Assembly (NCBI GenBank): GCA_016699835.1
Contig: CP064987.1
Location: forward strand, 1,776,876-1,840,875
DNA from: Phycisphaerales bacterium
GTDB taxonomy: Bacteria; Planctomycetota; Phycisphaerae; Phycisphaerales; UBA1924
Direction of reading: 5' to 3'
Length of the DNA stretch: 64,000 nucleotides
The position numbers and the translations under genes were made by a program. The notes under the pieces were generated by a model. It saw only the letters and a program-made list of their open reading frames with translations, was not told the DNA's origin and did no database searches. Shown here one piece after another: positions 16,087 through 50,030 of the stretch (the stretch's first letter is position 1; every line of letters begins with the position of its first letter).

Positions 16087-16136
16087 CTACCCATCCTCGT
16101 GGGGCAGGCGGCCCGCCTGCCTCTACTTCCTCCTAC
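16087..16136 (+). repeat. Family A palindromic element (core GGCAGGCGG-C-CCGCCTGCC)
   Basis: CTACCCATCCTCGTGGGGCAGGCGGCCCGCCTGCCTCTACTTCCTCCTAC lies between the sigma and anti-sigma genes. Confidence 0.8.
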
Positions 16137-16180
16137 TCCACGCTCATCCCGATGCGCCTGAAACCGAACTCCGTCACCAC

Positions 16181-16825
16181 TCACCCCTCTCCCGCACCCA
16201 GTTTCTCGGACGCCGCCAACTCGCGCAACTGCCGTCGTGCCCGCGCAATCCGAGTCTCCACCGTCGTCTCGGGCAGTCCCAGAATCCGCCCGATCTCCCG
16301 GTACGACAGACCCTGCACCGCCTTCAAAAGCAACGGCTCGCGATACCCCTCCGCCAACTGCTGCGACAACTCCATCAATCGCCGACCCACCTGCTCATCC
16401 GCCAAGCGCTCCGGCGGCGGCGTCTGATCTGCGGTCAACCCCGTCGTCACTCCAGGACGGACCGTCTCGTCGTTCGCCGTCCCCGCGCTCTGACCCCGAT
16501 GCTTCCCAGGCCGCGCCGCCGCCCTCGCCGCGTTCACCGCCACCGTCCGAAGCCACGGCCGGATCGCCGACGGATCGCGGATCTCCCCCACCTTCCGTAC
16601 CAGCGACATCGCGACCTCTTGCAACAGGTCGTCCACATCCGCCCAACGCGGCTTGTGCGCCAACAGAATCGCCGCCACCCACCGCCGATGCTGACCCCAC
16701 ACCGCCTCCAACGCGCGGGCATCCCCCGCCACCGCCGCGGCAGCATGGATCTCCATCGACCCATCGCCTCCCAGCGACGCCGACTCACCCTCCGACGACA
16801 TGTCCGGCTCACTTCGTCGTTTCAC
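16181..16825 (-). CDS. ECF-type RNA polymerase sigma-70 family factor
   Basis: The region 2 segment reads DVDDLLQEVAMSLVRK. The region 4 HTH segment reads QGLSYREIGRILGLPETTVETRIARARRQL. The start is uncertain (16825, 16801 or 16756). Confidence 0.8.
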   Translation of the reverse strand: MKRRSEPDMSSEGESASLGGDGSMEIHAAAAVAGDARALEAVWGQHRRWVAAILLAHKPRWADVDDLLQEVAMSLVRKVGEIRDPSAIRPWLRTVAVNAARAAARPGKHRGQSAGTANDETVRPGVTTGLTADQTPPPERLADEQVGRRLMELSQQLAEGYREPLLLKAVQGLSYREIGRILGLPETTVETRIARARRQLRELAASEKLGAGEG

Positions 16826-16930
16826 AGGCCTGTTCCGTCCCCATCAGGATGCCCCGCCCTCCAACCTCCGTCACCTCAACATTCCTTCGCCCTCATCCCC
16901 GCAAAATAACGCGCCAGTTCCAACCAAAAC

Positions 16931-16961
16931 ACGAATACGATCCGCCCTCACCAACCGTTCA
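16931..16961 (-). promoter_or_regulatory. Possible ECF-type promoter (TGAAC-N17-CGTA)
   Basis: The minus strand reads TGAACGGTTGGTGAGGGCGGATCGTATTCGTG about 110 nt upstream of the sigma gene. This is a motif resemblance only. Confidence 0.2.
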
Positions 16962-17026
16962 TACCTGCACCCAGAACCCATTCCTTATCGGCATCCCAAG
17001 CCCCACGCGACCTCCACCTTCTGCCC

Positions 17027-18049
17027 ATGCCCCCCGCCACACGCACCAACTCCATGACCCTCGGCGAGCACCTCAATGAACTCCGCCGTCGTCTCATAGT
17101 CTCCATCCTCGGCCTCATCCCCATCCTCATCCTCGCGATGGTCTTTGGCCAGAAACTCCTCGCCCTCCTCCTCGCCCCTGCCCAGGAGGCCCTCCGCGAG
17201 CACAACTTCCCCGGCGCCCTCCAGACCACCAGCCCCCTCGAACTCTTCTTCACCTACTTCAACGTCAGCCTCATCGCCGCCGTCGTCGTCGGCAGCCCCT
17301 GGCTCCTCTTCCAACTCTGGCTCTTCGTCTCTCCAGGCCTCCACCACCACGAGCGCCGATACGTCTACTTCCTCATCCCTCTCTCCACCGCCCTCACCGC
17401 TCTGGGCATCCTCTTCCTCTTCAAGGTCATCCTCCCCTTTGCCATGACCTTCTTCGTCACCTTCGGCTCCGACATGGGCGCACGACACGCCACTACCGCC
17501 CCGCTCCCGCCCGGCATCGTCCTCCCCTCTATCCCCATCCTCGACGCCGATCCACCCGACCCACAGCCCGGCCAGCAATGGATCAACCGCCCCCTCACCG
17601 CCCTCCGCATCGCCTCCACAACCTCCGACGCCAAACCCGAGATCTACTCCGTCCCCCTCACACGCGAGGTCGGTGTCGTCCAGCAGTACCGTGTCGCCGA
17701 GTACATCCGACTCCTCCTCATGCTCTCCCTCGCCTTCGCCCTGGGGTTCCAACTCCCCGTCGTCATCCTCCTCCTCGGCTGGGCGCGCCTCATCAACATC
17801 GCGGCACTCAAGAAATACCGAAAGTACGCCCTCTTCGCCTGCGCCATCGTCGCCGCCTTCATCACGCCCGGCGATCCCACCTCCATGATCGCCATGTGGA
17901 TCCCCCTCTATCTCCTCTACGAACTCGGCATCGCCCTCCTCCGCTTCTTCCCCGCCCACAAAGTCGCGGGCAAACCCGCACCCATCGACCGCATGCTCAC
18001 CGCCGAACCCGAAGACATCCGCGAAAAATCAGACGCCGCCGACGAATAG
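17027..18049 (+). CDS. tatC: Twin-arginine translocase subunit TatC
   Basis: The translation starts MTLGEHLNELRRRLIVSILGL..., has six hydrophobic segments and contains ITPGDPTSM. The start is 17027 or 17054. Confidence 0.85.
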   Translation: MPPATRTNSMTLGEHLNELRRRLIVSILGLIPILILAMVFGQKLLALLLAPAQEALREHNFPGALQTTSPLELFFTYFNVSLIAAVVVGSPWLLFQLWLFVSPGLHHHERRYVYFLIPLSTALTALGILFLFKVILPFAMTFFVTFGSDMGARHATTAPLPPGIVLPSIPILDADPPDPQPGQQWINRPLTALRIASTTSDAKPEIYSVPLTREVGVVQQYRVAEYIRLLLMLSLAFALGFQLPVVILLLGWARLINIAALKKYRKYALFACAIVAAFITPGDPTSMIAMWIPLYLLYELGIALLRFFPAHKVAGKPAPIDRMLTAEPEDIREKSDAADE

Positions 18050-18058
18050 CCGTGTCCG

Positions 18059-18113
18059 TTCCTACCCACCCTCGTGGCACAGGCGACTCGCCTGTGTCCT
18101 ACTTCTCTTCTAC
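18059..18113 (+). repeat. Family A palindromic element, covarying variant (CACAGGCGA-C-TCGCCTGTG)
   Basis: The flanks are the same (CCTACCCACCCTCGTGG ... TCCTACTTCTCTTCTAC), but the stem carries compensatory changes. Confidence 0.75.
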
Positions 18114-18149
18114 ATCTTCCATTTTCAAAGCCCCACAAACACCCTCTCC

Positions 18150-18695
18150 ATGTCCCTCCTCTCCCGAATCTTCTCGCGACATTCCACCCCACCGCCCTCG
18201 CCGCGCCCGTCTCTCCCACCCACCGACACCGATCGCGCCATGATGGCCCGCGCCCTCACCCTCGCCCGCCACGCCGCGGCCCAGGGCGAGGTCCCCGTCG
18301 GCGCCATCCTCTACCAAACCTCAACATCCACCATCCTCGCCGAAGGCTTCAACCAGCGCGAAATGGACCATGATCCCTCCGCCCACGCCGAGCATCTCGC
18401 CATCGTCGCCGCCGCCAAAGCACAGCACGACTGGCGCCTCGAGGACACCACCCTCGTCGTCACCCTCGAGCCCTGCGCCATGTGCGCCGGCCTCATCGTC
18501 AACGCCCGCATCCCGCGCCTCGTCTTCGGCACGCGCGACCCCAAGGCCGGCATGGTCCGGTCCCTCGCCACCCTCTGCGACGACCCGCGCCTCAATCACC
18601 GCGCCGCCATCATCGAGGGCGTCATGCAGGACGAGTGCGCCAAAGTCCTCAGCGACTTCTTCCGCGCCCTTCGTGCCCGTCCACGATCGTCCTGA
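18150..18695 (+). CDS. tadA: tRNA adenosine(34) deaminase
   Basis: The CDA zinc motifs HAEHLAI and TLEPCAMCAG are present. Confidence 0.85.
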   Translation: MSLLSRIFSRHSTPPPSPRPSLPPTDTDRAMMARALTLARHAAAQGEVPVGAILYQTSTSTILAEGFNQREMDHDPSAHAEHLAIVAAAKAQHDWRLEDTTLVVTLEPCAMCAGLIVNARIPRLVFGTRDPKAGMVRSLATLCDDPRLNHRAAIIEGVMQDECAKVLSDFFRALRARPRSS

Positions 18696-20709
18696 ACAAG
18701 AACTTCGCCACCTCGCGCATGTACAACTCGCGATTGTCCAGTTTCGCGAACCCGTGCCCCTCATCGGGGAAGTACAACTCCACAGGCTCAAGCCCCCGAC
18801 GCCGCAGCCCCACCGCCAACTGCATCGCCTCGCCCACAGGCACCCGCGGATCGTTCAGACCGTGCGCGATCATCATCGGCACGTTGATCTTGTCGATCTT
18901 GTGGATCGACGACACCGACTCCAGAAACTCCGGATCAGAGAGCGGCCCATACTCCACCTCCCGCAACTTCCGCCGATACCCGCTCGTCTGCTCCAAGAAC
19001 GTCTTCAGGTTCACGATCCCCACCACGTCGATCCCCGCGCCGAACAACCGCTCCTTCCGCTCCCCCCGATCGACCGCCAACTGATCCTCAACGACGCACG
19101 CCACACTCATGAACCCGCCATACGACCCGCCATACGTCGCGATCCGCCCGGCCTGGGCATACCCCTGATCCACCAGCCACTTCGCCGCCGCCACGCCATC
19201 ACGAACGCTGTCCCAGCGCCCCTTGTAATCGTCCATCATCAGGAACGCGCGCCCATACCCATCGCTCCCGCGCACGTTCGGCTGCATCACCCCGATCCCT
19301 TGCGACAGCAGATACTGGATCGTCGACGAGAACCCGGGCCGCGATTGCCCCTCCGGTCCGCCGTGATAGTTCACCACGAACGGAATCGGTGAACCCTTCT
19401 TCGCCCCCGCCGGCAGGAACACAAACGCCGGCACCTCCAACCCGTCAAAACTCGAGTACCGCACCAACTCCGCCAGCGGAAACTTTGAGAAGTCGATCCC
19501 CTGATCGTCCGATCGCGTCAACTCGCGCGCGGCACCAAGCACGCCATCCTCACCCACCGTCGCCATCGACGTCGTCCCCGGCGTGCGCGCGTTCGACAGC
19601 GACCAATACAAATCGCGCCCGCGGAACTTCACGCCAGAGACAACGCCCTTCTCCATCTCGGGCAGCCGAACCACCTCAAACCCAGGCAACCGATACACCG
19701 ACAACTCCCCATACCCATCCACATTCGCCACCACCGCCAGGAGCGACCGATCGTCGTTCATCGTCGCCTCGTCCACCTGACGCCCCGCCAGCGCGGGGAT
19801 CGCCAGCCGCAATGTTCCCGTGGCAAGATCGCGCACAAAGACCTGCTTGAGACCCTCCTCTGCGTCCGACGTCATCAGAACCTGCCGCTCACCCGGCATG
19901 TACCCGATCGGCTCCTGCGCCGCCGTCGGCGTCTTCTCGCCCACTTTGTCAGGCAGGATCGACAGGTCCCGCAACACCCCGCTCGCGACATCCAACTCCT
20001 GCACCACGCTGTGCGACGACGAGAAATACTGCATCACCAGCACCCGCGAACCATCGTCGCTCATGTCCGCCGCCACCCAGTACCCCGGCTTGCCGAGCAA
20101 CTTCGTCCTCGTCCCCGCCTTCGTTGCGTCGCCATCCACAAAGTCGTAGCGATACAAATAGAAGTCGTTCGCGCTCTCGTCGTTCGCCGAGTACAAAAAC
20201 CCGCTCGAGTCCTTCAGCCAGTGCATCGGCGTGAAGACGACCTTGTCCTGCTCCAGAATCGCCTTGACACTGGGCACGCGCCCGTCGCGATCCACCACGT
20301 ACACCTGCGTGTTCTCGTTCCCGCCCACCGCCGCCGACGCCAGCATCACCTTCCCGTCGGGCGACAGCGAGTAACTGCTCGCCCCGTCCGCAAAGTCCGT
20401 CAGTGCGATCAGTTTCGATCCCGGCCCTGCCGTCGATCGACCCTTTTCCCCCGCGACGCGATACACCTGGAACACGCCATTCGGCCAATCGCGCACATAC
20501 AGCGATCCATCCGCCCCCACCGTCGCCGCGCCCGGCGTCCGAATCCGTAAATACCGCGCAAGCAACTCCAGATCAGGCCCGCCAGCCGCCACCTCGGCCT
20601 CAACACCACGACCACCCGGCGCACCCGCCTCTCCCCACGAAACCGTTGGCGTCAAAGCGCCAGCCACCATCGCCAACACCAACGCGCCAACGCCCAGTGT
20701 CCGATTCAT
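18649..20709 (-). CDS. S9 family serine peptidase (prolyl oligopeptidase/dipeptidyl aminopeptidase-like), secreted
   Basis: The signal peptide begins MNRTLGVGALVLAMVAG. A beta-propeller-like N-terminal half is followed by GGSYGGFM and DEGHGF. AGGAG lies upstream. The gene overlaps the tadA 3' end convergently. Confidence 0.85.
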   Translation of the reverse strand: MNRTLGVGALVLAMVAGALTPTVSWGEAGAPGGRGVEAEVAAGGPDLELLARYLRIRTPGAATVGADGSLYVRDWPNGVFQVYRVAGEKGRSTAGPGSKLIALTDFADGASSYSLSPDGKVMLASAAVGGNENTQVYVVDRDGRVPSVKAILEQDKVVFTPMHWLKDSSGFLYSANDESANDFYLYRYDFVDGDATKAGTRTKLLGKPGYWVAADMSDDGSRVLVMQYFSSSHSVVQELDVASGVLRDLSILPDKVGEKTPTAAQEPIGYMPGERQVLMTSDAEEGLKQVFVRDLATGTLRLAIPALAGRQVDEATMNDDRSLLAVVANVDGYGELSVYRLPGFEVVRLPEMEKGVVSGVKFRGRDLYWSLSNARTPGTTSMATVGEDGVLGAARELTRSDDQGIDFSKFPLAELVRYSSFDGLEVPAFVFLPAGAKKGSPIPFVVNYHGGPEGQSRPGFSSTIQYLLSQGIGVMQPNVRGSDGYGRAFLMMDDYKGRWDSVRDGVAAAKWLVDQGYAQAGRIATYGGSYGGFMSVACVVEDQLAVDRGERKERLFGAGIDVVGIVNLKTFLEQTSGYRRKLREVEYGPLSDPEFLESVSSIHKIDKINVPMMIAHGLNDPRVPVGEAMQLAVGLRRRGLEPVELYFPDEGHGFAKLDNRELYMREVAKFLFRTIVDGHEGRGRSR

Positions 20710-20741
20710 GCTCCACTCCTTCGTTCTTTCGCGCCCGCGCG

Positions 20742-21014
20742 TCACCGCCACACGTTCGCCAGCACCAGGATCACAAACGCCACCACCAGCACCACGATCA
20801 CCGCGACGTGCCACCCCTTCGGCCCGCCGCGCCGATCCCGCGCCATCAGTGCGTGGCCGCACTTCCAGCACACCGCCACATCGTCATAGATCTCCGCCTG
20901 GCAACTCGGACACGAGCGCGTCACATCCCCGAACCGCTCCAGATCCGCCTCGGTCGGCCCGTCATCGATCTCCACCTGTCCGCGTCGTTTCGCCACGCGC
21001 CATCCTATTCTCAA
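20742..21014 (-). CDS. Small zinc-ribbon protein with a C-terminal TM helix
   Basis: CPSCQAEIYDDVAVCWKCG and WHVAVIVVLVVAFVILVLA are present. It lies 33 nt upstream of the S9 peptidase gene on the same strand. Confidence 0.5.
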   Translation of the reverse strand: MRIGWRVAKRRGQVEIDDGPTEADLERFGDVTRSCPSCQAEIYDDVAVCWKCGHALMARDRRGGPKGWHVAVIVVLVVAFVILVLANVWR

Positions 21015-21017
21015 ACC

Positions 21018-21416
21018 GTGTCACACGTGCTCCCCGCCATCCTCGTCGGCCTCGGCGGCGGCACCGGCGCCATCGCGCGATACCTCGTCGGACTCGCCTC
21101 CCTCAAACTCCTGGGCGACCGATTCCCCTTCGCCACGCTCTTCGTGAATGTCCTCGGCTGCCTCCTCATCGGCGCCCTCATCTCCGCCTGGACCGGAGGC
21201 ACAGGCGAGGCCCGCTCGCCTCACGAGCACGTCAGACTCCTCCTCGTCACCGGGCTCCTCGGCGGGTTCACCACCTTCTCCGCCTTCGGCCTCGAGACCT
21301 TCACCCTCTACAAACAACACCATCTCGCCCTCGCCGCGCTCAACATCATGCTCAACATCGTCCTCGGTATCGCCGCCGTCGCCCTCGGCATCAAACTCGG
21401 CCGAACCGTCGCCTGA
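21018..21416 (+). CDS. crcB: Fluoride ion channel CrcB/FluC
   Basis: Translation VSHVLPAILVGLGGGTGAIARY...TLFVNVLGCLLIG...GLLGGFTTFSAF. The start is GTG at 21018 or 21027. Confidence 0.8.
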   Translation: MSHVLPAILVGLGGGTGAIARYLVGLASLKLLGDRFPFATLFVNVLGCLLIGALISAWTGGTGEARSPHEHVRLLLVTGLLGGFTTFSAFGLETFTLYKQHHLALAALNIMLNIVLGIAAVALGIKLGRTVA

Positions 21417-21434
21417 ACACCCCACGAGAAGCCC

Positions 21435-22466
21435 ATGCGATACCGCCCCATCCCCCGCACCTCTCTCAAACTCTCCGAGATCGGCTTCGGCTGTTGGACC
21501 ATGGGCGGACCCAACTGGTCAGTCTCCAACGGCCAGCCCATCGGCTGGGCCGACGTCAAGGAAGACGACATCCTCCAGGGCATCAAGACCGGCATCGACG
21601 CCGGCGTCAACCACTGGGACAACGCCGACATCTATGGCAACGGCAAGGCCGAAAGACTCCTCGCCCAGTCCCTCCACAAACTCGGCATCAAACGCGACAC
21701 CCAGATCCTCGCCACCAAAGTCGGCCACTTCAAAGGCACCGCCCCCTACGCCTACGAACCACAGCACATCCGCCACCAGTGCGAGCAGTCACTCAAAAAC
21801 CTCCAGACCGACCACGTCGATCTCTACTACTTCCACCATGGCACGTTCACAGGCCCCGACTACAACAACCAGACCCACGATTACCTCCACGAAGCGGCAG
21901 ACACCATGCACGCCCTCGTCAAGGAAGGCAAGGTCGTCGCCATAGGCCAATCCGCCTACACCGACGAAGACTTCGAGCGCGTCGTCCCCGTCCTCAGGCC
22001 CCACATCCTCCAGAACAAGGCCAACCTCCGCTACGACGACTTCCTCCGCCCGGGCTCACGTCTCCAATCCCTCATGAAGACCCACGTCTGCGCCTTCGTC
22101 GCCTTCGGCCCCCTCGACCAGGGAATCCTCCTCGACAAGTTCGATCCCGCCAATCCCCCCAAGTTCGACGAAGGCGACTATCGCGCCAATCGAAAGGACT
22201 TCAACCCCAACACTCTCTGGGCCGTCCGCGAGAAACTCGCCAAGGCCCTCGCCCACTTCAATAAGGACAAACTCACCGCCGAGGACCGCGTCCGCGCCCT
22301 CGCCTCCATCGCACAGCGTTGGCTCCTCGCTCACGATCACGTCTGCTCCGTCATCCCCGGCTTCCGCAACGCACGACAAGCCGCCTGCAACGTCGCTGCC
22401 GCAAACGACACACCGATGTCCACCAACGACGTCGCCTGGCTCCGCGACCTCTTCAAACCCGTGTAA
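21435..22466 (+). CDS. Aldo/keto reductase
   Basis: Translation LSEIGFGCW...NHWDNADIYGNGKAERLL...DLYYFHH has the AKR signature. Confidence 0.85.
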   Translation: MRYRPIPRTSLKLSEIGFGCWTMGGPNWSVSNGQPIGWADVKEDDILQGIKTGIDAGVNHWDNADIYGNGKAERLLAQSLHKLGIKRDTQILATKVGHFKGTAPYAYEPQHIRHQCEQSLKNLQTDHVDLYYFHHGTFTGPDYNNQTHDYLHEAADTMHALVKEGKVVAIGQSAYTDEDFERVVPVLRPHILQNKANLRYDDFLRPGSRLQSLMKTHVCAFVAFGPLDQGILLDKFDPANPPKFDEGDYRANRKDFNPNTLWAVREKLAKALAHFNKDKLTAEDRVRALASIAQRWLLAHDHVCSVIPGFRNARQAACNVAAANDTPMSTNDVAWLRDLFKPV

Positions 22467-22659
22467 CAACCGCAATGTGTGATCTCACACGCTGACGCGC
22501 GCCCCCGCGCCGTCACGCATGCATCCTTGACCGATCCACACGCCGGATCGGCCACACGCCACGACGGAGTCCTTGGCACTCCCGCATCGCCCGCGTGCAC
22601 GCGAGCCTTGTCCCAACCACCACCACCCCGTTTCACCCCACGCGCCAAGGAGGCACGCC

Positions 22660-23142: not shown

Positions 23143-23256
23143 ACGCGCAACTATCTACAAAATAGCGATTTATAATATTGTTGTACCAAACCAACTCGTC
23201 AAGTCAACTTGATAAGGGATAAAATGATCGTCATATCTCTTTTCAAGGAGAACTCG

Positions 23257-24216
23257 ATGAGTCGTTCAACCCTTCTCGCCGCCATCGCGGCACTCGCCCT
23301 TGTCCCCACCGCCTTCGCCCAGGAAGTCGCCACAACCCCCACCAAGGCCCATTTCGCCCTCGGCGATCAATCCTGGTTCGGCGAGGACGACCCAAACTCC
23401 GAAGGCTTCATCACCGGCCTCCGCGGCTTCAGCCACTTCTACGAGCCCATCGGCAATCCCATCTACTTCGAATCCCCCTTCAACTACACCGGCGCCCGAT
23501 TCATCTACCTCCACCACTCCTTCGCCGATGACAGCCAACTCGCCGGCGGCGAACTCAGCGTTTACGCACTCCAACTCCGACTCGCCATCAACGAACGCCT
23601 CGGCTTCATCGCCACCAAGGACGGCTACAGCGACCTCAAGGCCGACGCCCTCCCCAACGACAAGGGTTGGAACGACCTCGCCGCAGGACTCAAGTACGTC
23701 TTCTACGTCGATCGCGAGAACGACACCGTCGCCACCGCCGGATTCCGATACATGGTCGACTCCGGCGATGAGGAAGTCCTCCAGGGCGGCGTCGGTGAGT
23801 TCAGCCCCTTCATCTCCGCCGCCATGGGCTTCGATGAACTCCACCTCATCGGCTCCGCCTCACTCCGCGTCCCCATGGACAGCGACGACGGCAACACCAT
23901 CTTCCAGTGGAGTTTCCACGCCGACTACGAGGTCAGCCCCGAGTCCATGCCCGGATTTGCCCCCGTCTTCGAACTCCATGGCCTCCACTACCTCGACGAC
24001 GGCGCCCGCACGCCCCTCTCCGTCGGCGGCCTCGACTACACCAACCTCGGCTCCACCGACGTCGCCGGATCCACCGTCATCTGGGCCGGACTCGGCGCCC
24101 GCTACAAACTCAACCCCAACATGCAACTCGGCCTCGACTACGAACTCCCCCTCACCAACCGCAACGCCGACATCTTCGGCGATCGCATCACCTTCGATCT
24201 CCACATCATGTACTGA
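23257..24216 (+). CDS. Outer-membrane beta-barrel protein candidate
   Basis: AAGGAG lies upstream. The signal peptide is MSRSTLLAAIAALALVPTAFAQE. Alternating beta-strand patterns occur, and the protein ends in an aromatic residue (...DLHIMY). Confidence 0.65.
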   Translation: MSRSTLLAAIAALALVPTAFAQEVATTPTKAHFALGDQSWFGEDDPNSEGFITGLRGFSHFYEPIGNPIYFESPFNYTGARFIYLHHSFADDSQLAGGELSVYALQLRLAINERLGFIATKDGYSDLKADALPNDKGWNDLAAGLKYVFYVDRENDTVATAGFRYMVDSGDEEVLQGGVGEFSPFISAAMGFDELHLIGSASLRVPMDSDDGNTIFQWSFHADYEVSPESMPGFAPVFELHGLHYLDDGARTPLSVGGLDYTNLGSTDVAGSTVIWAGLGARYKLNPNMQLGLDYELPLTNRNADIFGDRITFDLHIMY

Positions 24217-24296
24217 TCCGAACGCTCCCGCTAGGGGCTGCGAAACTCCGTAAGCGAGCGATACGAGCACTCGATTCCACAATCATTTCACGCCCA

Positions 24297-24323
24297 GGGG
24301 CAGGCCACTCGCCTGCCCCTTTT
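24297..24323 (+). terminator. Rho-independent terminator (GGGGCAGGC-CACTC-GCCTGCCCC-TTTT)
   Basis: A 9-bp stem and T-run lie 80 nt after the stop at 24216. Confidence 0.7.
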
Positions 24324-24436
24324 CTCTTCACCCCGCAGTCACGATCAACAACAACTTTGGCACGACGCACATTGTCGATCCTGCACGGACTCCTTGACTC
24401 ACCAAATCCCGGAGAACGACCGCCCCATCCACCCTC

Positions 24437-24745: not shown

Positions 24746-25035
24746 GACGTGATGTTCAGGCCATGCTTCTTCGCAAGTTCGAGCAACGCCCCACGCGCCT
24801 CAACTCCCTTACCCGCCCTGAACTCGGCCTCGCTCAGACCGATCATCGCCAGAGTCTCACCAAGGTCGGCACGATCGGCCAACTCGTCAAAGGCCTTCGC
24901 GCTCAGCACCACCGCCTCCGCCACCCCATCGCTCGTCACATACAAAAGCCGGCCCGTCTCCTTCACATGGTTCAGGTGATCCCGAAGATTCTGCCGCAAC
25001 TCCGTGAAGTTCGTGATGTCGCTCGTCCGAGTCAT
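24742..25035 (-). CDS. Type II antitoxin, Phd/YefM-like
   Basis: Translation MTRTSDITNFTELRQNLRDHLNHVKETGRLLYVTSDGVAEAVVLS. I trimmed the start to Met25 of the ORF. Confidence 0.75.
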   Translation of the reverse strand: MTRTSDITNFTELRQNLRDHLNHVKETGRLLYVTSDGVAEAVVLSAKAFDELADRADLGETLAMIGLSEAEFRAGKGVEARGALLELAKKHGLNITS

Positions 25036-29103: not shown

Positions 29104-29478
29104 TCACACCACCCTGATCCGCTTCACCGTCGCCCCGCACGCCCGCTTGAGCACCGTCTCCCCGCCGCTCCTCAGCCACACACTCACCGCGCTCCGCGTC
29201 GACGAATCCTCCGCCCGAATCGTCAGCACCCCCGCGCGCAGCCCCTCAGGCCGAGCCCGCTCACAGATCGCCCGAGGCACATTCTCCTCCCACGCCCGCT
29301 CCACGCCCCCCACCGCCCGCGACACGCGCTTCACACTCCCCACCAATCGCTCGACCTCACGACCAACACCAACATCCTTCTCCGCTCGAACCCGATACCC
29401 GCGCACCCGTTCCACCGCCGCCAACCCGGGCATCAATCCCGGCGTCACACGCCCACACTTCGCGCCGCCTCGCTCCAT
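29104..29478 (-). CDS. DUF721-like protein (DciA-type, tentative)
   Basis: Translation ...ERAWEENVPRAICERARPEGLRAGVLTIRAEDSSTRSAVSVWLRSGGETVLKR...KRIRVV matches my memory of the DUF721 pattern. Confidence 0.45.
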   Translation of the reverse strand: MERGGAKCGRVTPGLMPGLAAVERVRGYRVRAEKDVGVGREVERLVGSVKRVSRAVGGVERAWEENVPRAICERARPEGLRAGVLTIRAEDSSTRSAVSVWLRSGGETVLKRACGATVKRIRVV

Positions 29479-29485
29479 GTCCTCA

Positions 29486-29545
29486 TCCTACCCAGTCTCG
29501 TGGGGCAGGCGGCCCGCCTGCCTCTCCTTCTCCTACTCCTACTTC
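29486..29545 (+). repeat. Family A palindromic element
   Basis: TCCTACCCAGTCTCGTGGGGCAGGCGGCCCGCCTGCCTCTCCTTCTCCTACTCCTAC begins 8 nt from the start codon at 29478. Confidence 0.8.
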
Positions 29546-29648
29546 ACGCCTCACAAAAGAGGGCATCCCACCTCTCTTCTCCTTCTTCCTCTTCATCATC
29601 CCCTCACACAACCCAATCCCACCCCCACGCGCGTACATTTCGCCTGTC

Positions 29649-30785
29649 ATGTCCACAACCATCCGCATCCACTCCCTCACCAAGTCCTTCCCCGCCCCAT
29701 CCGGCGGCACAACCACCGCCGTCGACCACGCCTCCCTCACCATCAACCCCGGCGAACTCTTCTTCCTCCTCGGCCCCAGCGGCTGCGGCAAAACCACACT
29801 CCTCCGAATGATCGCAGGCTTCATCGACCCAACCTCCGGCACCATCACCTTCGAAGACGCCAAAGGCACACGCGACGTCACCCACCTCGCCCCAAACCTC
29901 CGAAACACCGGCATGGTCTTCCAGTCCTACGCCCTCTGGCCACACATGACCGTCGAAGCCAACGTCGCCTTCGGTCTCAACATCCGCAAAACCCCATCCG
30001 ACGAGAAAAAACAACGCGTCGCCGAGGCCCTCAAGGCCGTCCAGATGGACCCCTACGCCACACGCAAGCCCAACCAACTCTCCGGTGGCCAACAACAACG
30101 CGTCGCCCTCGCCCGCGCCCTCGTCATCCGCCCCAGCGTCCTCCTCCTCGACGAGCCCCTCTCCAACCTCGACGCCAAACTCCGAAACGACCTCCGCGCC
30201 GAGATCCGAAAAATCTGCAAGGCCTCAGGCATCACCACCGTCTACGTCACCCACGACCAGAAAGAAGCCCTCAGCATGGCCGACCGCATCGCCGTCATGC
30301 GCAGCGGCTCCATCGTCCAGATCGGCTCTCCCACCGACATGTACCGAAAGCCCGCCTCGCGCTTCGTCGCCGAGTTCCTGGGCGAGACCAATCTCTTCGC
30401 CGCCACCATCGCCGAGATCAAGCCCGCAAACGCCACCAGCCCAAGACTCGTCCGCCTCACCACTCCCGCCGGCGAACTCCTCTCCACACACACCGAGCAC
30501 GCGCAATCACCAGGCACAAAGGTCACCCTCTCCATCCGCCCCGAAACCATCCAACTCTCGCGCGACGCCCACACGCCCTCAACCACCAACAGCCTCAAAG
30601 CCACCATCGAGGACACCACTTTCCTCGGAGAAACCGCCCAGCACACCGCCGCACTCGCCGACGGCACCCACCTCCGACTCGCCACCCTCCACCCCCTCGC
30701 CAACGCCAACCTCGATACAGGCCACAAAGCCACACTCACCATCAGCCCCGACGACGTCGTCGTCCTGCCGCAAGATACAAACTGA
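29649..30785 (+). CDS. ABC transporter ATP-binding protein (PotA/FbpC/MalK-like with a C-terminal TOBE-like extension)
   Basis: Walker A is GPSGCGKTT, the signature is [15 protein letters not shown], and Walker B is LLLDEP. No permease or binding-protein gene is adjacent. Confidence 0.85.
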
Positions 30786-30796: not shown

Positions 30797-30852
30797 GTGG
30801 CCCGCCTCTCCGAGGCGGGTCTCATGATGGCACCGATCTACAGAGCGGTGGC
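30797..30852 (+). repeat. Two tandem family B hairpins (GTGGCCCGCCTCTCCGAGGCGGGTC and GGCACCGATCTACAGAGCGGTGGC)
   Basis: Read directly from the sequence. The second copy is degenerate and abuts the stop codon at 30853. Confidence 0.65.
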
Positions 30853-36354: not shown

Positions 36355-36418
36355 CCAGGTGGCACAACTCCAGAGTGGTGTCCGACTCCCCAAGGTGGCA
36401 CGGCTCTCCAGAGCCGTG
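36355..36418 (+). repeat. Two tandem family B hairpins (CCAGGTGGCACAACTCCAGAGTGGTG and CCAAGGTGGCACGGCTCTCCAGAGCCGTG)
   Basis: Read directly from the sequence. The second copy has a perfect 9-bp stem. Confidence 0.75.
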
Positions 36419-38602: not shown

Positions 38603-38631
38603 CTTGGTGACCCGCCTCTCCAGAGGCGGGT
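38603..38631 (+). repeat. Family B palindromic element (CTTGGTGA-CCCGCCTCT-CC-AGAGGCGGG)
   Basis: It is nearly identical to the copy at 344-372. Confidence 0.8.
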
Positions 38632-42604: not shown

Positions 42605-42614
42605 TCGCGCACAC

Positions 42615-42660
42615 TCCTACCCAAGCTCGTGGGGCAGGCGGCCCGCCCGCCTCTACCACT
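42615..42660 (+). repeat. Family A palindromic element
   Basis: TCCTACCCAAGCTCGTGGGGCAGGCGGCCCGCCCGCCTCTACCACTT begins 11 nt from the dnaE start. Read on the minus strand, it places AGGAG 9 nt before the ATG. Confidence 0.8.
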
Positions 42661-42770
42661 TCGACCTCTCTCGCAGCATATCCGCCACACGATCCAACAA
42701 CCGCTCTCGCCACGCCCAATAGCCCCTCCCACCGCCGCAATGCCCCTCTCCACTTTCCGAATACCATGCG

Positions 42771-43067
42771 ATGATGGACCCGACCCCCACGGGCACTCCC
42801 CCGCACACGCCCCAGGACCCAACCCAGGCCCCGGGCCACTTCCCCAGAACCCAATCCCTCGCCGCCCTCCTCGTCTACCTCGCCCTCATCGTCCTCGTCG
42901 TCGCCGTCGTCATCGTCTTCATCCCCATCTTCCTCATCGCCGCCATCATCTTCGGCGTCCTCTCCGCCACACTGACCATCCTCGCCTGGTTCAAACGCCA
43001 GAAACGACCCAACGGCATCCTCGACGGCCGAAAAAACGTCCGAGTCCGCGGCCCCAACGAGCCATGA
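42771..43067 (+). CDS. Small two-TM membrane protein (hypothetical)
   Basis: A Pro/Thr-rich N-terminus is followed by LAALLVYLALIVLVVAVVIVFIPIFLIAAIIFGVLSATLTILAW. Confidence 0.45.
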   Translation: MMDPTPTGTPPHTPQDPTQAPGHFPRTQSLAALLVYLALIVLVVAVVIVFIPIFLIAAIIFGVLSATLTILAWFKRQKRPNGILDGRKNVRVRGPNEP

Positions 43068-43085
43068 TGCACACAGACACAACGA

Positions 43086-44240: not shown

Positions 44241-44315
44241 CCCTTCAACATGTGTTCAATCTCAAGTGATCCGTGCACTCTAGACGCCCACGCCACGCGC
44301 GTCGATCATGCCACG

Positions 44316-45302
44316 TTACCCACCCTCGTGCCCACCCCGAACAAATCCGCGCCATCCACCAACCAATCCGCGCGTCACCTCACCCACCACCCCCCCGCCA
44401 ATCCGCTCACGCTCCACGCCAACCACAGGCAGCACGCCCCAACTGCTGTTCGTCAAAAACACCTCATCGCTCGACAGCACATCATCAATCGACAGCATCC
44501 GTCGCTCGAGGGTCATCCCCATCGTCTCCGCCTGTTGAATCACCCACTCCCGCGTGATCCCAGGCAAGACCGGACTCGGCAACACCGCCCCACTGCCACC
44601 CGCCTGCCGTGCTCCATCGCCGAACCCTTCTTCCCCACGCGCAATCGGCGTGAGCAGCACGCCATCCCTCACACAGAACACGTTGCTCACGCACCCGCCG
44701 CTCAGGTGATTCGTCACCTGAAACACCAGCGCCTCTCCCGCGCCGCTCGCCGCCGCCCGCTGCAACTCGCGCAGACGCGACCAATACGACAGCGTCTTGT
44801 GCCCCGCCATCGCGTCCAGCGGATTCACCCGCCAGTCCGCCAGCACCACCGACACCCCGCGCTCGAACATCGCCTCGGGATACACCGTCGCCGGCGTCGC
44901 CGCGATCAACACCGTCGGCTGATGCTCACGCCCCACACCCTCCCCACGCTCGAGCAGGTTCAGATCACCCCCCGTGATCGTCAAACGCACGCGCCACGCC
45001 GAAACTCCATCGGAACTCCCACCCGAATCACCTCTCGAATCATCAACCGCGCGCTCCAACGTCCGCCGAACCGCCTCCACCAACGCCTCCACCTTCAGTG
45101 TCGTCGAAAGCCCCAACTCCCGCGCCGAGAACGCCAGCCGCTCCACGTGCTCACGCACCAATATCCCGCGCACCCCCGCGCCATCCCTCACCCCCAGCAT
45201 CGTCTCGAACAACCCCACCCCATGCTGCAACCCGGCATCAAACGCCGACACCCGCGCATCATCCCGCGACACAAACTCGCCATCCAGAAACACACTCGAC
45301 AC
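44316..45302 (-). CDS. Class IV (fold-type IV) aminotransferase / aminodeoxychorismate lyase-like
   Basis: Translation FLDGEFVSRDDARVSAFDAGLQHGVGLFETM...GHKTLSYW...LPGITREWV. The GTG start at 45302 is tentative, with GGAG 7 nt upstream inside the family A element. Confidence 0.75.
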   Translation of the reverse strand: MSSVFLDGEFVSRDDARVSAFDAGLQHGVGLFETMLGVRDGAGVRGILVREHVERLAFSARELGLSTTLKVEALVEAVRRTLERAVDDSRGDSGGSSDGVSAWRVRLTITGGDLNLLERGEGVGREHQPTVLIAATPATVYPEAMFERGVSVVLADWRVNPLDAMAGHKTLSYWSRLRELQRAAASGAGEALVFQVTNHLSGGCVSNVFCVRDGVLLTPIARGEEGFGDGARQAGGSGAVLPSPVLPGITREWVIQQAETMGMTLERRMLSIDDVLSSDEVFLTNSSWGVLPVVGVERERIGGGVVGEVTRGLVGGWRGFVRGGHEGG

Positions 45303-45311
45303 GCACGTTCT

Positions 45312-45371
45312 CCCTACCCAATCTCGTGGCACAGGGAGGGGGGCGTCTTGCCTGTGTCCTATTTCGTCTAC
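45312..45371 (+). repeat. Family A palindromic element, divergent variant with an enlarged loop
   Basis: The sequence is CCCTACCCAATCTCGTGGCACAGG...CCTGTGTCCTATTTCGTCTAC. Confidence 0.65.
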
Positions 45372-45471
45372 ATCGCCTCAAGGCTCGGCGAGTGGACATC
45401 TCACCAGTGCACAGCATCATCAACAACACATGGAGCCCGACCGCCAGAGAGGGCCCGCACACCCCCACACC

Positions 45472-46872
45472 TCAATGCCCGGCCTCACCACCAGGCGCAC
45501 CCGCCGCCTTCTTCGACCCCATCAGCACGATCGCGCCGCCCACCACACACGCCACCGTCGACGCCACCAGGATCCCCAGTTTCGCCGTCGCCAGGTGCGC
45601 CTCATCCTTGAACGCCAGATGCGCAATGAACAGCGCCATCGTGAATCCAATCCCGCCCAGCCACGCCGCCCCGTGCAACTGCACCCAGTTCACGCCTCGC
45701 GGCAGCGCCCCAAGCCCCACCTTCACCGCAAACAGAGACGCCAGCGTGATCCCAATCGGCTTCCCGATCGCCAACCCCAGAATCACGCCCAACCCTTCCC
45801 GGCTGCCCAGACTCCCGATCGATCCCGTGTCCACATGCACGCCCGCGTTCGCGAGCGCGAAGATCGGCACAATCAGGAACGCCACCCACCCCACCAGCCC
45901 ATGCTCCAACTGGTGCAGCGGCGTCTGCACCTTGTCGCACGCATCCTCCACCGCCTGCACCAGCGCCTGCTGCTTCGCGCTCGAGATGATCGTCTTCCCG
46001 GGCTCCAGCGTGCCCCCGGCGTCCTCACGGAACGCCGCGATCGACTTCTCCGTGAAGTCCACGAACTTCTTCGAGTCCACCCGCGTCCGCACCGGGATCA
46101 TCGCCGCCCCGATCACACCCGCGATCGTCGCGTGCACCCCCGACATCAGCACCATGTACCACAGCACCAGGCCCACCACAAAGAACGCGATCGCCTTGCG
46201 AACACCCAGCAGGTTCATCGCCAGCATCACGCCCGCGCACACCCCCGCACCCATCAGGTAGTCCGTCCGCAGGTCGTCCGTATAGAACACCGCGATCACC
46301 ACCAGCGCGCCAAGATCGTCCGCGATCGCCAGCGTCGCCATGAACAGCCGCAGACCCATCGGCACCCGCTTCCCAAGAAGCGCGAGCACCCCCAGCGCGA
46401 ACGCGATGTCCGTCGCCATCGGCACGCCCCACCCGTGGATCGTGTCGTGCCCCCAGTTCAGCGCCGCATAGATCCCGCCAGGCACCACCATCCCGCCCAC
46501 CGCCGCAAACATCGGCAGCGCCGCCTTCTTGAACGACGACAACTCCCCGATCGCCATCTCCCGCTTGATCTCAAGACCGACGAGGAAAAAGAAAATCGCC
46601 ATCACCGCGTCGTTGATCCACCACTCGAGCGAGCCTTTCAGCCCGATCTTCCCCCCAAGGTCCAGAGACACCTCCGTCTCCGCCCAGAAATGGTGCCACG
46701 CCTCGCCAATCCCGGAGTTCGCCGCAACCAGCGCCGCCACAAGGCACACCAGCAGGATGATCCCGCCCCCAGCCTCCATCCGCATGAACGAGTTGAATGG
46801 CCCAACTAGCCGATCCACCGGCGCCGGCGGAATCTCATCCCGAAGCCGCGGCACTCGCGCCCCATGAGCCAT
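45472..46872 (-). CDS. nhaA: Na+/H+ antiporter NhaA
   Basis: FFFLVGLEIKREM and LAIADDLGA are present, with about 11-12 TM segments. I trimmed the start to Met62, which has AGGAG upstream. Confidence 0.9.
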   Translation of the reverse strand: MAHGARVPRLRDEIPPAPVDRLVGPFNSFMRMEAGGGIILLVCLVAALVAANSGIGEAWHHFWAETEVSLDLGGKIGLKGSLEWWINDAVMAIFFFLVGLEIKREMAIGELSSFKKAALPMFAAVGGMVVPGGIYAALNWGHDTIHGWGVPMATDIAFALGVLALLGKRVPMGLRLFMATLAIADDLGALVVIAVFYTDDLRTDYLMGAGVCAGVMLAMNLLGVRKAIAFFVVGLVLWYMVLMSGVHATIAGVIGAAMIPVRTRVDSKKFVDFTEKSIAAFREDAGGTLEPGKTIISSAKQQALVQAVEDACDKVQTPLHQLEHGLVGWVAFLIVPIFALANAGVHVDTGSIGSLGSREGLGVILGLAIGKPIGITLASLFAVKVGLGALPRGVNWVQLHGAAWLGGIGFTMALFIAHLAFKDEAHLATAKLGILVASTVACVVGGAIVLMGSKKAAGAPGGEAGH

Positions 46873-46901
46873 CCAAAGACTCCTCTCCAGGTGGACAACA
46901 T

Positions 46902-46930
46902 CCAAGGTGGCACCGCTCTCCAGAGCGGTG
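46902..46930 (+). repeat. Family B palindromic element (CCAAGGTGG-CACCGCTCT-CC-AGAGCGGTG)
   Basis: Perfect 9-bp stem. It lies 30 nt upstream of the nhaA start. Confidence 0.8.
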
Positions 46931-46984
46931 TTCTCTAAACACAGCCCCACCGTAAGGGACGGCCTCCCCCACTTCAACCCACCC

Positions 46985-49714
46985 CTATCTCCCAAACTCA
47001 AACCGCCCACCGGCATATCCCACCCGCACCACATCCCCGCTCCCAATCTCCCCATTCAAAATCTTCGTCGCCAGCGCATTCTCCACCCGCTGCTGAATCA
47101 CTCTCTTGAGTGGCCTCGCTCCAAACACCGGGTCCCACCCCTCCACACCCAACTGCTCCTTCGCCTTCTCCTCCATCTCCAGCACAATCCCCCGCTCCGC
47201 CAGCCGCGCCGTCAGCCGCGCCAACTGGATCTCCACAATCCGAGAGAGCGCCTCCTTCGCCAGCATGTGGAACACCACCACCTCATCGATCCGATTCAGC
47301 AACTCCGGCCGCATCAACCCGCCCGACATCGTCTGCGCCGCCTTGCTCATCACCTCCATCACCTTCGAGGGCAACCCCGCCGCACGCCCCACCTCCTCCG
47401 CCGCCAGCGCCGCCGGCCCGCGCTTCAGCATCTCCCGCATAGCTGCCTCGATCTCCCAGTCCTCCGCCCCGCTCGCCGCCAACTCCTGGATCTGCTGGCT
47501 CCCATAGTTGCTCGTCATCACCACGATCGCGTTGCGGAAGTCCACCGTCCGCCCCTGCCCATCCGTCAGCCGCCCATCATCCAATACCTGCAGCAGAATG
47601 TTGAACACGTCCGGATGCGCCTTCTCGATCTCATCCAGCAGCACCACGCAATACCCCCGCCGCCGCACCGCCTCCGTCAACTGCCCCCCCTCGTCATACC
47701 CCACATACCCCGGAGGCGCCCCGATCAGCCGCGCCACCGCGTGCTTCTCCCCATACTCGCTCATATCAATCCGCACCACCGCCTCGTCCGTGTCGAACAG
47801 AAACTCCGCCAGCGCCTTGCACGTCTCCGTCTTCCCCACGCCCGTCGGCCCCAGAAACAGAAAACTCCCGATCGGCCGATCCGGATCGCTCAATCCCGCC
47901 CGACTCCGCCGCACCGCGTCCGACACCGCCCTCAACGCGTGCTCCTGCCCCACCACCCGCTTCGAGAGTTGTTCCTCCATCCGCGTCAGTTTCTCACGCT
48001 CCCCCTCCACCAGCCGCGACACCGGAATCCCCGTCCACCGCCCCACCACCTCCGCGATCGCCTCCGCATCAACTTCTTCCTTCACGAGCGCATCGCCACG
48101 CTCCTGACGCACCGCCAACGACTGCTCCGCGGCCTTCAACTTCCCCTCAAGATCCCGCATCTCCCCATACCGGATCCGCGCCGCCGACTCCAGGTCCCCA
48201 CGCCGCTGCGCCTGCTCCAACTCCACCTGCTTCTCGTCCATCGTCCGCTTGATGCCCTTCACGGCATCCAACTCCCGCTTCTCCTCCTCCCACCGTGCCG
48301 AGAGCGCCCGATTCTTCTCCTGGATCTCCCCCAACTCCCGCTCGATCCGCTCCAACTCCCGCTGCGTCCCCCCACGCTCGCTGCTCTTCTCGTCCTTCCC
48401 CTTCGACTCGATCTTCAGCGCCTCCCGCTCGATCTCCAGTTGCATGATCCGCCGACGCAACTCATCCAACTCCGTCGGCATGCTGTCGTTCTCAATCCTC
48501 AAACGGCTCGCCGCCTCATCCACAAGATCGATCGCCTTATCCGGCAGGAACCGATCCGCAATGTACCGATGGCTCAACTGCGCCGCCGCCAGAATCGCCT
48601 CGTCCTTGATCCGAACGCCATGGTGCGCCTCATACCGCGGCTTCAGCCCGCGCAAGATCGCCACCGTCTCCTCCACCGTCGGCTGATCCACATACACCGG
48701 CTGGAATCGCCGCTCAAACGCCGCGTCCTTCTCCACGTGCTTGCGATACTCATCCAGCGTCGTCGCCCCGATGCACCGCAACTCCCCACGCGCCAAGGCC
48801 GGCTTGAGCAGGTTCCCCGCGCTCACCGCTCCCTCCGCCGCGCCCGCCCCGATGATCGTGTGCAACTCATCAATGAACAGAATCACCCGCCCATCGCTCG
48901 CCATCACCTCACGCAAGACCGCCTTGAGCCGCTCCTCAAACTCCCCGCGAAACTTCGCCCCCGCAAGCAACTGCCCCACATCCAGCGCCACGATCCGACG
49001 ATCCCGCATGCTCTCCGGGCAATCCCCATTCACAATCCGCAGCGCCAGCCCCTCCGCGATCGCCGTCTTCCCCACGCCAGGCTCACCAATCAACACCGGA
49101 TTGTTCTTGGTCCGTCGGCTCAACACCTGCATGCATCTCCGAATCTCCTCGTCACGCCCGATCACCGGATCCAACTTCCCCTGCTGCGCCTTCTCCGTCA
49201 GGTCGATCCCATACTTCTTGAGCGCCTCATACCCGCTCTCCGCGTTCGCATCGCTCACACTCGACACCCCCGATGACTTCCGAATCTCCCCGATCGCCTT
49301 CTCCAGCCGCGCCTTGCTCGCGCCGAACGAGGTGAGAATCTCCTTCGCCTGCCCCGCCGAGCCGCCAACGTCGAGGAGCGCCAGCAGCAAGTGCTCCGAC
49401 GAGACCAGCGCATCGCCCATGCGCTTCGCCTCGCTCTCCGCCTTCGCCAGTATCTCCATGAGCGCTCGGCCGGCGGCCCCAGCCCCAGACGACGTCGTCG
49501 GCAAGCGATCCAACTCGCTCCGAGCCACACGCTCGATCTCCCCCACATCCGCCCCGGCCTTCCCCAGAATCGACCGCACCGGCCCGCTCCGGTCCTCCAA
49601 CATCCCCCACAACACGTGCAAGCCCCCAACCTCCGCGTGCGACTTCCCCATCGCCTCACGCTGAGCGTCCGCGAGCACCTGCTGAGCAACCGTCGTCAAT
49701 CGATCCTGGCGCAT
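46985..49714 (-). CDS. clpB: ATP-dependent disaggregase ClpB
   Basis: There are two AAA+ modules ([10 protein letters not shown] and GPTGVGKTE), a middle coiled-coil domain and a Clp N-domain. GGAGG precedes the Met31 start. Confidence 0.95.
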
Positions 49715-49980
49715 GGAAATACCTCCACACACCCACCATGCAACCCGCGCACCAACCGACAACCCCATCACACAGGCCCTGTAGCCCCCGTGAAGACCAA
49801 ACACAACCCAAAATAATGGTTCTCGCCGTCCACGGCCAGAGCATCAACCCGCCCCGCTGCCTCACTGGCAGTCCACGCCGCATGCCCCAACCTCCCACAG
49901 TTTCGGTCACAAATCACGACTCCAGCCGAACCGATCGCCTTCCACGCCGAATCGAACCCCACGCCGGTGCACGACAATGC

Positions 49981-50030
49981 CTACAACGGCTAGTGGGGCA
50001 GGCGGCCCGCCTGCCTCTACTTCTTCTACA
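49981..50030 (+). repeat. Family A palindromic element
   Basis: The sequence is CTACAACGGCTAGTGGGGCAGGCGGCCCGCCTGCCTCTACTTCTTCTACA. Confidence 0.8.

Follow-up and report, generated by a model that had tools for sequence, protein, structure and literature searches.

The subject of this analysis is Family A, a short structured repeat with six intergenic copies within 34 kb of a 64-kb stretch of DNA from a Phycisphaerales bacterium (contig CP064987.1; the whole stretch is called the window here). Family A probably is the repetitive extragenic palindrome (REP) family of a RAYT/TnpA-REP system (a "REPtron"; RAYT, REP-associated tyrosine transposase) of the order Phycisphaerales, and it is best read as a new REP/RAYT family with unusual replication polarity. 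A preliminary description of the window had taken the repeat for a hairpin-plus-ribosome-binding-site (RBS) cassette that often supplies the Shine-Dalgarno (SD) sequence of the adjacent gene; the finding is mostly explained by a REP family, not by a new kind of translation cassette. That description had named ordinary selfish REP/MITE debris as the alternative that would count against a cassette. The REP part of this scenario agrees with our results, but the copies are better organized than the word debris implies.

A repeat search grouped the copies into one direct-repeat family of six members, 58 to 67 nt each and all on the + strand, and a covariance model of the family (R1) scored them at 51 to 73 bits (E = 3e-17 to 1e-11); both thus returned the six sites, and the single strand, that had been described. 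Over the 64 kb, R1 found no further full-length copy. The general plan is an arm, CCTACCCA-NN-CTC, followed by a GTGG tag, a 19-nt hairpin (8-bp GC-rich stem and 3-nt loop), and a pyrimidine tail often containing CTAC; direct reading of the six sites bears out the consensus proposed earlier. Copy 1 (16086-16143; 68.0 bits, E = 4.9e-16) consists of CCTACCCA-TC-CTC, the GTGG tag, the hairpin GGCAGGCG-GCC-CGCCTGCC at 16103-16121, and the tail TCTACTTCCTCCTAC. The hairpin of copy 2 (18061-18118; 68.1 bits, E = 4.6e-16) is CACAGGCG-ACT-CGCCTGTG, and that of copy 3 (29487-29544; 72.7 bits, E = 3.1e-17) is again GGCAGGCG-GCC-CGCCTGCC. Copy 4 (42616-42673; 64.7 bits, E = 3.5e-15) has the hairpin GGCAGGCG-GCC-CGCCCGCC, with one A.C mismatch on the + strand that is a G.T wobble on the − strand. 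Copy 5 (45313-45379; 53.8 bits, E = 2.2e-12) is a two-tier long-loop variant, CACAGG-GAG-GGGGGCGT-CTT-G-CCTGTG, and copy 6 (49980-50037; 51.2 bits, E = 1e-11) combines a degenerate 5' arm (CCTACAACGGCTAGTGG) with an intact hairpin, GGCAGGCG-GCC-CGCCTGCC. Both stem types, GGCAGGCG/CGCCTGCC and CACAGGCG/CGCCTGTG, as well as the longer-looped form in copy 5, therefore match the first description. The GG..CC variant with a GGC loop dominates in the window: GGCAGGCGGCCCGCCTGCC is exact in three copies and carries one mismatch in a fourth. Family A hairpins fold at −15 to −21 kcal/mol as RNA and at about −10 to −12 kcal/mol as DNA; with DNA parameters, copy 3 reaches about −10.5 kcal/mol on either strand. 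Possible left-arm fragments had been reported as well, but those at 44319, 34041, and 50786 proved to be bare 12-mers with no adjacent hairpin and model E values of at least 9.

Relatives of the family were collected from one genome per species (GTDB representatives) with the seed pattern CCTACCCANNCTCGTGGNNCAGG, which places no constraint on the remainder of the stem, the loop, the whole right arm, or the tail; the resulting loci are stretches of 8 to 14 kb. The scan yielded 29 loci, 27 of which come from Phycisphaerales or Phycisphaeraceae metagenome-assembled genomes (MAGs) of many species and have a hairpin at the expected place without exception (27/27), whereas the other two are gammaproteobacterial chance matches that lack a hairpin. 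Model R1 found 48 copies in the related loci, many of which do not match the seed pattern yet keep the 5' arm and GTGG, and a metagenome scan added further copies of the same kind. The GTGG tag is invariant in all 54 aligned matches; the opposite strand of many copies also reads GTAG-A-hairpin. Pairing in the 8-bp stem is 97.7% across 33 copies drawn from many Phycisphaerales genomes, compared with 30 to 50% when the partner column is slid, and none of 500 shuffles reached the observed values. Compensatory changes occur at four of the eight stem pairs, and the free outer positions include C-G, G-C, A-U, and U-A pairs. The compensatory changes first noticed in the window thus hold up, and covariation is real and general across Phycisphaerales copies. 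A comparison of the window with Rfam gave a tRNA as its sole match at gathering thresholds, and no match at E ≤ 1 over 15000-51000.

A look for a RAYT/TnpA-REP-type transposase, proposed in the preliminary description, turned up a RAYT flanked by Family A copies in one relative (locus L017; contig JBAZUW010000019.1). In L017, an open reading frame (ORF) at 643-4632 (− strand; 1329 aa), which Pfam identifies as valyl-tRNA synthetase (ValRS), holds three Family A copies. Alignment with the ValRS of a second relative (L013) revealed an insert of ∼230 aa in the L017 protein, in frame and without stops. Read along the ValRS strand, the insert comprises an element (3150-3207), a partial hairpin, a second element (3060-3117), a 149-aa HUH/Y1 protein, and an inverted element (2503-2560). 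The insert may be real and tolerated by this essential gene, or it may be an artifact of assembly. The 149-aa protein shows MPDHVHLIL and YVLGNPVAAGLV, with HVH and YVLGNP motifs visible, and matches the NCBIfam model REP_Tyr_transpos at E = 1.8e-22 (79.8 bits) over profile positions 4 to 145 of 146; its match to Pfam Y1_Tnp is weak (1.2e-4), and with the IS200 model it scores 17.4 bits against a cut-off of 55.

A database search with the L017 RAYT returned 1368 homologues, and many of the 120 best are named REP element-mobilizing transposase RayT. We looked up three of these homologues for their flanks. In L030 (P0002, a Phycisphaerales MAG), GTGG-CACAGGCGTCTCGCCTGTG hairpins, identical to Family A stems in L011, L008, L009, and L014, lie before and after the RAYT gene, one of them inverted. 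In L033 (P0015, a metagenome contig), GGTGG-CACCGGCTTCCAGCCGGTG precedes the RAYT gene and an inverted GTGG-CACAGGCCTCTGGCCTGTG follows it, and in L034 (P0019), related hairpins, CCCACCCCTGGTGG-CACAGGCATCTTGCCTGTG, occur on both sides. REP-RAYT-REP is the defining arrangement of a REPtron (PMC3333891, PMC8266576); L017 displays it, with a RAYT flanked by the same REPs, including an inverted one, and GTGG-hairpins flank the homologues in L030 and L033. Family A presents the hallmarks of a REP: a short palindrome that can fold as a single strand, a tetranucleotide directly 5' of it, and a protein of the HUH/Y1 RAYT class. A conserved CT is also present, on the 5' side within CTC-GTGG and in many 3' tails as T-CT-AC.

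These features compare well with described systems. REPs consist of a tetranucleotide and a palindrome, are bound as single-stranded DNA by TnpA-REP, and are cut at a flanking CT; in one tested system, a GTGG tag was tolerated and retargeted cleavage (PMC8266576). GTGG replaces GTAG in REPs of Opitutus terrae, REPs are present in Rhodopirellula baltica, and REPs inside genes are known (PMC3733652). With GTAG-type REPs and REPtrons (Escherichia coli REP/BIME, Stenotrophomonas SMAG, O. terrae GTAG-20, and those of R. baltica), Family A shares a tag 5' of a GC-rich palindrome, compensatory stem subfamilies, a location that in the window and the related loci is mostly intergenic with occasional in-gene copies, a RAYT flanked by direct and inverted units, and CT flanks (PMC3733652, PMC8266576, PMC3333891). 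Unlike described REPs, it has a conserved unpaired arm of 13 nt (CCTACCCA-NN-CTC) upstream of the tag, occurs as singletons in one orientation rather than as inverted doublets, has an orientation tied to GC skew, and is conserved as a unit across many species of an order. The REPINs of Pseudomonas fluorescens, too, are short repeats linked to a RAYT and subject to concerted evolution inside a genome (PMC3116915), but REPINs are inverted REP doublets, whereas the window copies of Family A are all direct singletons without the REPIN/BIME organization; inverted pairs were confined to the RAYT locus and a single case in L018. Insertion sequences of the IS200/IS605 family (IS608 and ISDra2) have in common with Family A a Y1 HUH enzyme, folded single-stranded DNA, a 5' guide tetranucleotide, and a replication-linked orientation bias (PMC3971601, PMC6006769). 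Family A differs from them in having one hairpin, no distinct ends, and no internal transposase, and the linked protein scores 79.8 bits with the RAYT model versus 17.4 bits with the IS200 model. A miniature inverted-repeat transposable element (MITE) derived from IS200/IS605 (PATE), with distinct left-end and right-end hairpins, is contradicted by the single hairpin per unit and by the fit of the linked protein to the RAYT model. At the element ends we found no consistent target-site motif or duplication, and the base before CCTACCC is variable; flanking direct repeats seen in L003 resemble a different local repeat.

Stem and loop variants are homogenized within each genome. One case is L005, which carries nine Family A copies in 8 kb (1662-7969), all in one orientation, with three of them head to tail at 7813-7969; eight of the nine have the genome-specific stem CACCGG-TTTSYAA-CCGGTG, and other genomes carry stem/loop variants of their own. 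Within the species set, CAZVMU01 is closest to the window: the two are ∼93% identical over 8-kb stretches, and CAZVMU01 has Family A at each of the four comparable sites. At orthologous sites, copy 1 is 77% and copy 4 is 62% identical next to left flanks that are 92 to 93% identical, whereas copies 2 and 5 diverge at the rate of their flanks (93% identity in L011 and 91% in L026, respectively). The copy 1 ortholog in L011/L042 has a different stem variant, and the copy 4 ortholog in L026 is a long-loop variant. Since a third relative, L042, shares the CAZVMU01 state of copy 1, it was the window lineage that swapped copy 1 for its own house variant.

Family A units also occur within genes. In L009, a unit at 5571-5628 has been inserted in frame into the linker that joins the ATPase domain of an ABC ATPase to its TOBE domain (compared with the ABC ATPase of the window), and in L013 a unit at 4408-4465 lies in frame in ValRS, at a site other than that used in L017. 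Both encode linkers rich in Pro, Thr, Ser, and Gly, such as PTQARGTGVSPVATPTTSP. As read from the sequence, the unit is free of stops in five of its six reading frames, so in-frame inserts survive. Rickettsia palindromic elements (RPE), reportedly described by Ogata et al. in 2000, are stop-free palindromic repeats that survive in frame in protein-coding genes. RPEs are longer and are not known to have a RAYT. What Family A shares with RPEs is its in-frame inserts in the ABC ATPase of L009 and the ValRS of L013 and L017, for which in-gene REPs offer a further parallel (PMC3733652).

The preferred orientation noted in the preliminary description is real; however, the reference is GC skew and not the start codons. 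The G+C content of the window is 64%, and its + strand has a very strong GC skew, about −0.3 from 1 to ∼53 kb and about +0.2 after 54 kb. This skew is independent of gene strand: codon-position G+C and a codon-usage gene caller place genes on both strands, and the skew is therefore not an effect of gene orientation. The switch, at ∼53.5 to 54.5 kb, adjoins parB (52041-53525) and a non-coding stretch of ∼950 nt (53505-54454), and parB, gyrA, dciA, and dnaE lie beside it. The switch probably marks the neighborhood of the origin, and the G-rich strand would be the leading one; a search for DnaA boxes showed no enrichment (7 matches versus 4.2 expected) and no cluster.

We measured skew in the 3 kb surrounding each element, on the element's own strand, at the 27 independent pattern-seeded loci. 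It was below −0.1 at 21 loci, within ±0.1 at 6, and above +0.1 at none (two-sided binomial test, ∼1e-6). When all 51 copies in the window and these loci were considered, the only positive skew (+0.14) belonged to a copy at a contig end that forms an inverted pair with its neighbor. Where skew is near zero (L036, L017, and L025), the two orientations are found close to each other, and the metagenome loci show the same relation of skew to orientation. Thus, the orientation of Family A follows GC skew, that is, replication direction, and not nearby genes. A sister GTGG family, GGTGG-CAC..CTC-TCCA-GAG..GTG, obeys the same polarity rule, its strand flipping with the replication arm: four exact copies left of the switch (at 347, 36394, 38606, and 46906) are on the + strand, as is a weak match with three mismatches at 30826, and the copy at 56070 is on the − strand. 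In both families the tag is carried by the C-rich strand, which the usual reading of skew makes the leading-strand template. A generic census of GTGG followed by a perfect hairpin agrees with this polarity, with 56 cases of negative and 14 of positive skew, but its loci had been chosen for Family A and are not independent, and we do not use it as evidence. Replication-linked orientation bias has been described for Y1-transposase insertion sequences (PMC3971601, PMC6006769); a non-exhaustive literature search found no report of replication-polar REPs, the known case being IS200-family insertion sequences (PMC3971601).

Intergenic DNA on the C-rich strand is also strikingly CT-rich, for example at 29545-29648 of the window and at many loci, with CTTCTCCTTCTTCCTCTTC runs and, in L013, a long CTT run; the CT strand asymmetry of intergenic DNA exceeds that of coding DNA.

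By analogy with E. coli TnpA-REP acting on GTAG REPs, the HUH/Y1 RAYT would bind the single strand in its folded form, by way of the hairpin and the GTGG tag, and would cut and rejoin it at the conserved flanking CT; such cutting and joining would copy or overwrite Family A units. We propose that the enzyme acts on single strands exposed by the replication fork; this would account for the tag strand being almost always the C-rich, leading-strand template. The SD-like reading on the G-rich strand (GGGTAGG plus neighboring bases) would then be a by-product of this polarity and of tight intergenic spacing. At some genes, for instance dnaE and dciA, it may have been co-opted, and any effect of the hairpin on mRNA would be secondary. 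We consider doubtful a more specific version in which the replication fork sets the orientation of both Family A and the sister GTGG family, and in which RAYT works on one template strand, mainly overwriting resident units in place by copy-to-copy replacement at fixed loci instead of seeding new ones; the host may then use the polarity and the extra 13-nt arm as a strand/arm marker. If true, one-strand overwriting would be the first natural genome-scale footprint of RAYT action in vivo. The spread and maintenance of REPs by RAYTs in cells have so far been deduced mainly from in vitro cleavage and comparative genomics; a singleton REP family whose strand follows the replication arm and whose units are replaced at orthologous sites would be a footprint that can be read in vivo, and one that points to fork-coupled single-strand processing.

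Several points weigh against assigning Family A to a REP/RAYT system. The L017 RAYT scores 0.2 bits under the curated NCBIfam cut-off (80) and has no obvious start codon of its own; this copy may be inactive. A tblastn search detected no RAYT in the 64-kb window or in any of the other loci, only that of L017, and the link between Family A and a RAYT comes from relatives. Moreover, full-length Family A units lie beside a RAYT at L017 alone, the other RAYT loci showing only the GTGG-hairpin core. Wobble pairs, which we tried as a guide to the strand that folds, do not decide the matter: three are G.U on the + strand, versus two A.C pairs that are G.U on the − strand. Occupancy of all four comparable sites at 93% identity indicates that movement to new sites is slow. 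If the GTGG strand is the active one, its place on the leading-strand template runs counter to what simple IS608-like insertion would predict, namely the lagging-strand template; an excision or survival bias with preferential loss of the other orientation, recognition of the G-rich strand through its GTAG-A-hairpin, or some other source of single strands might account for this. Finally, the 17-nt arm is conserved in many species, beyond the known needs of a RAYT, and could reflect a host function.

Among other explanations, it seems unlikely that Family A is a host transcription terminator or mRNA 3'-end stabilizer that is repeated by chance. Like Rho-independent terminators, Family A units have a GC-rich hairpin and a pyrimidine-rich tail on one strand. 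The hairpin is stable as RNA (−15 to −21 kcal/mol), the tail on the + strand is pyrimidine- and T-rich, many copies follow stop codons, and REPs with such action are known in other bacteria (PMC3733652); copy 6 and a related hairpin at 24296-24320 even pass a terminator scan. Copy 6, on the + strand, is nevertheless the only one of the six window copies whose T-rich tract passes, and in the sense that gives the T-rich tail, five of the six are directed away from their neighboring genes or located upstream of them, copy 2 alone being downstream of a + strand gene. In addition, copies are found in divergent promoter regions (copy 3) and inside ORFs, and the conserved 17-nt 5' arm and GTGG tag are foreign to terminators; Family A also lacks a consistent U-tract and a consistent position downstream of genes. 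The hairpin at 24296-24320, GGGGCAGGC-CACT-CGCCTGCCCC, is followed by TTTTCTCTT and lies after a + strand gene (23224-24216). It gives a hairpin-and-tail-only match to R1 at 24297-24339 (E = 0.002), the next best in the window after the six copies and the sole other match below 0.01. This hairpin looks like an ordinary terminator whose stem resembles that of Family A, without the 5' arm and the tag.

We regard as quite improbable the idea that the repeat is a chromosome-level polar signal of the host, a replication, segregation, or recombination cue in the manner of KOPS or Chi, to which the RAYT would be incidental. Orientation that strictly tracks GC skew in both families, a 17-nt 5' arm conserved across many species, sites that persist between relatives, and copies near the putative origin region with parB, gyrA, dciA, and dnaE would all fit such a signal. 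Irregular spacing, tandem arrays, copies within ORFs, and stem variants specific to individual genomes would not; the elements directly flank a RAYT gene, and the idea lacks a candidate reader protein.

The neighborhoods of the copies bear on the cassette reading. Window genes were assigned with Pfam scans and the codon-usage gene caller, which misses the deaminase gene at 18150-18695. Five copies (1, 3, 4, 5, and 6) do lie 5' of minus-strand genes, as had been stated, according to ORF calls and Pfam. Copy 1 is between an ECF sigma gene (−, stop at 16181) and an unknown ORF (−), with a GTG at 16076, 9 nt away. Copy 2 is flanked only by + strand genes: the tatC stop (18049) is 11 nt upstream and the ATG (18150) of a tadA-like deaminase gene is 31 nt downstream (Pfam TatC and MafB19-deam/dCMP_cyt_deam_1). 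Copy 3 occupies the divergent gap between the DciA gene (−, ATG at 29478, 8 nt away) and the ABC ATPase gene (+, ATG at 29649; Pfam DciA and ABC_tran). Copy 4 precedes the dnaE ATG (42604, −; Pfam DNA_pol3_alpha) by 11 nt, and a small + strand ORF begins near 42771. Copy 5 lies between a class IV aminotransferase gene (−, GTG at ∼45302, ∼10 nt away) and the NhaA gene (−, stop at 45472; Pfam Aminotran_4 and Na_H_antiport_1). Copy 6 is between the ClpB start (−, within 49714-49804; at least 176 nt away) and a small YjfB-like ORF (−, 50049-50432).

We extended this comparison to a census of the genes flanking the 51 copies, with every element oriented as in the window. The flanking genes were arranged (−,−) for 16 copies, (+,+) for 9, convergently for 7, and divergently for 7; the remainder comprised ∼6 copies inside ORFs and 6 with one flanking gene uncalled. 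Of the 51 left ends, 9 are no more than 20 nt from a stop codon and 12 no more than 20 nt from a start codon; they thus abut ORF boundaries generally and not starts specifically, and the fixed sense and distance to a start codon that characterize an SD-bearing 5' leader were not found.

It is accordingly very improbable that Family A is a hairpin-plus-RBS cassette, a module of the 5' untranslated region (UTR) whose minus-strand reading would give an SD sequence and a regulatory hairpin to the downstream gene. What the preliminary description had seen of it is accurate: minus-strand SD-like readings (GGGTAGGA/GGGTAGGGAG) do stand 7 to 11 nt before the starts next to copies 3, 4, and 5, where GGGTAGGATGAGG, GGGTAGGAG, and GGGTAGGGAG precede dciA, dnaE, and the aminotransferase gene, respectively, and the dnaE ortholog in L026 retains GTAGGAG. 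In the 12 copies whose left end is close to a start codon, that start is co-oriented. The description also remains valid in that Family A is a structured, covarying repeat with copies in the same orientation; it is the role assigned to it that does not generalize. Nine copies, copy 2 among them, abut a stop codon, all four arrangements of flanking genes occur, copies lie in frame within ValRS and an ABC ATPase, tandem arrays exist, orientation tracks GC skew rather than gene direction, and part of each SD-like string is supplied by bases outside the element. As a general property, the RBS reading is ruled out by the census. For annotation, the REP assignment matters because units next to the dnaE and dciA starts or inside ValRS and ABC-transporter genes will, if not recognized, be misread as leaders, terminators, or protein linkers.

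The sister GTGG family is represented in the window by the following copies. The first, at 347-371 (+), reads GGTGG-CCCGCCTC-TCCA-GAGGCGGG and lies directly 3' of a tRNA-Ser gene (250-339). A sister-family-like copy at 30797-30819 (+), GTGG-CCCGCCTC-TCC-GAGGCGGG, is situated just past the stop of the ABC ATPase gene (30785). Further copies are at 36394-36418 (+), with the sequence GGTGG-CACGGCTC-TCCA-GAGCCGTG, and at 38606-38630 (+), where GGTGA-CCCGCCTC-TCCA-GAGGCGGG occupies the convergent gap between the end of a + strand gene (38535) and the dnaE stop (38642). The copy at 46906-46930 (+), GGTGG-CACCGCTC-TCCA-GAGCGGTG, falls between the ClpB stop (46985) and the NhaA start, and that at 56070-56094 (−), GGTGG-CACTGCTC-TCCA-GAGCGGTG, is the one to the right of the skew switch.

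Other repeats came to light alongside these families. At ∼2370-2560 of L003, two Family A units are interleaved with a local palindromic hairpin repeat, GTTCTGAAACAG-TCTCTTAGAAG-CTGTTTCAGAAC, which may be a separate repeat family of that genome. In the window, the repeat search also found two pairs of 93-nt repeats with a spacing of 102 nt, at 6728-6922 and 63659-63853, within minus-strand ORFs; they encode a GGVTIDDLL-type motif that resembles a dockerin or EF-hand repeat.

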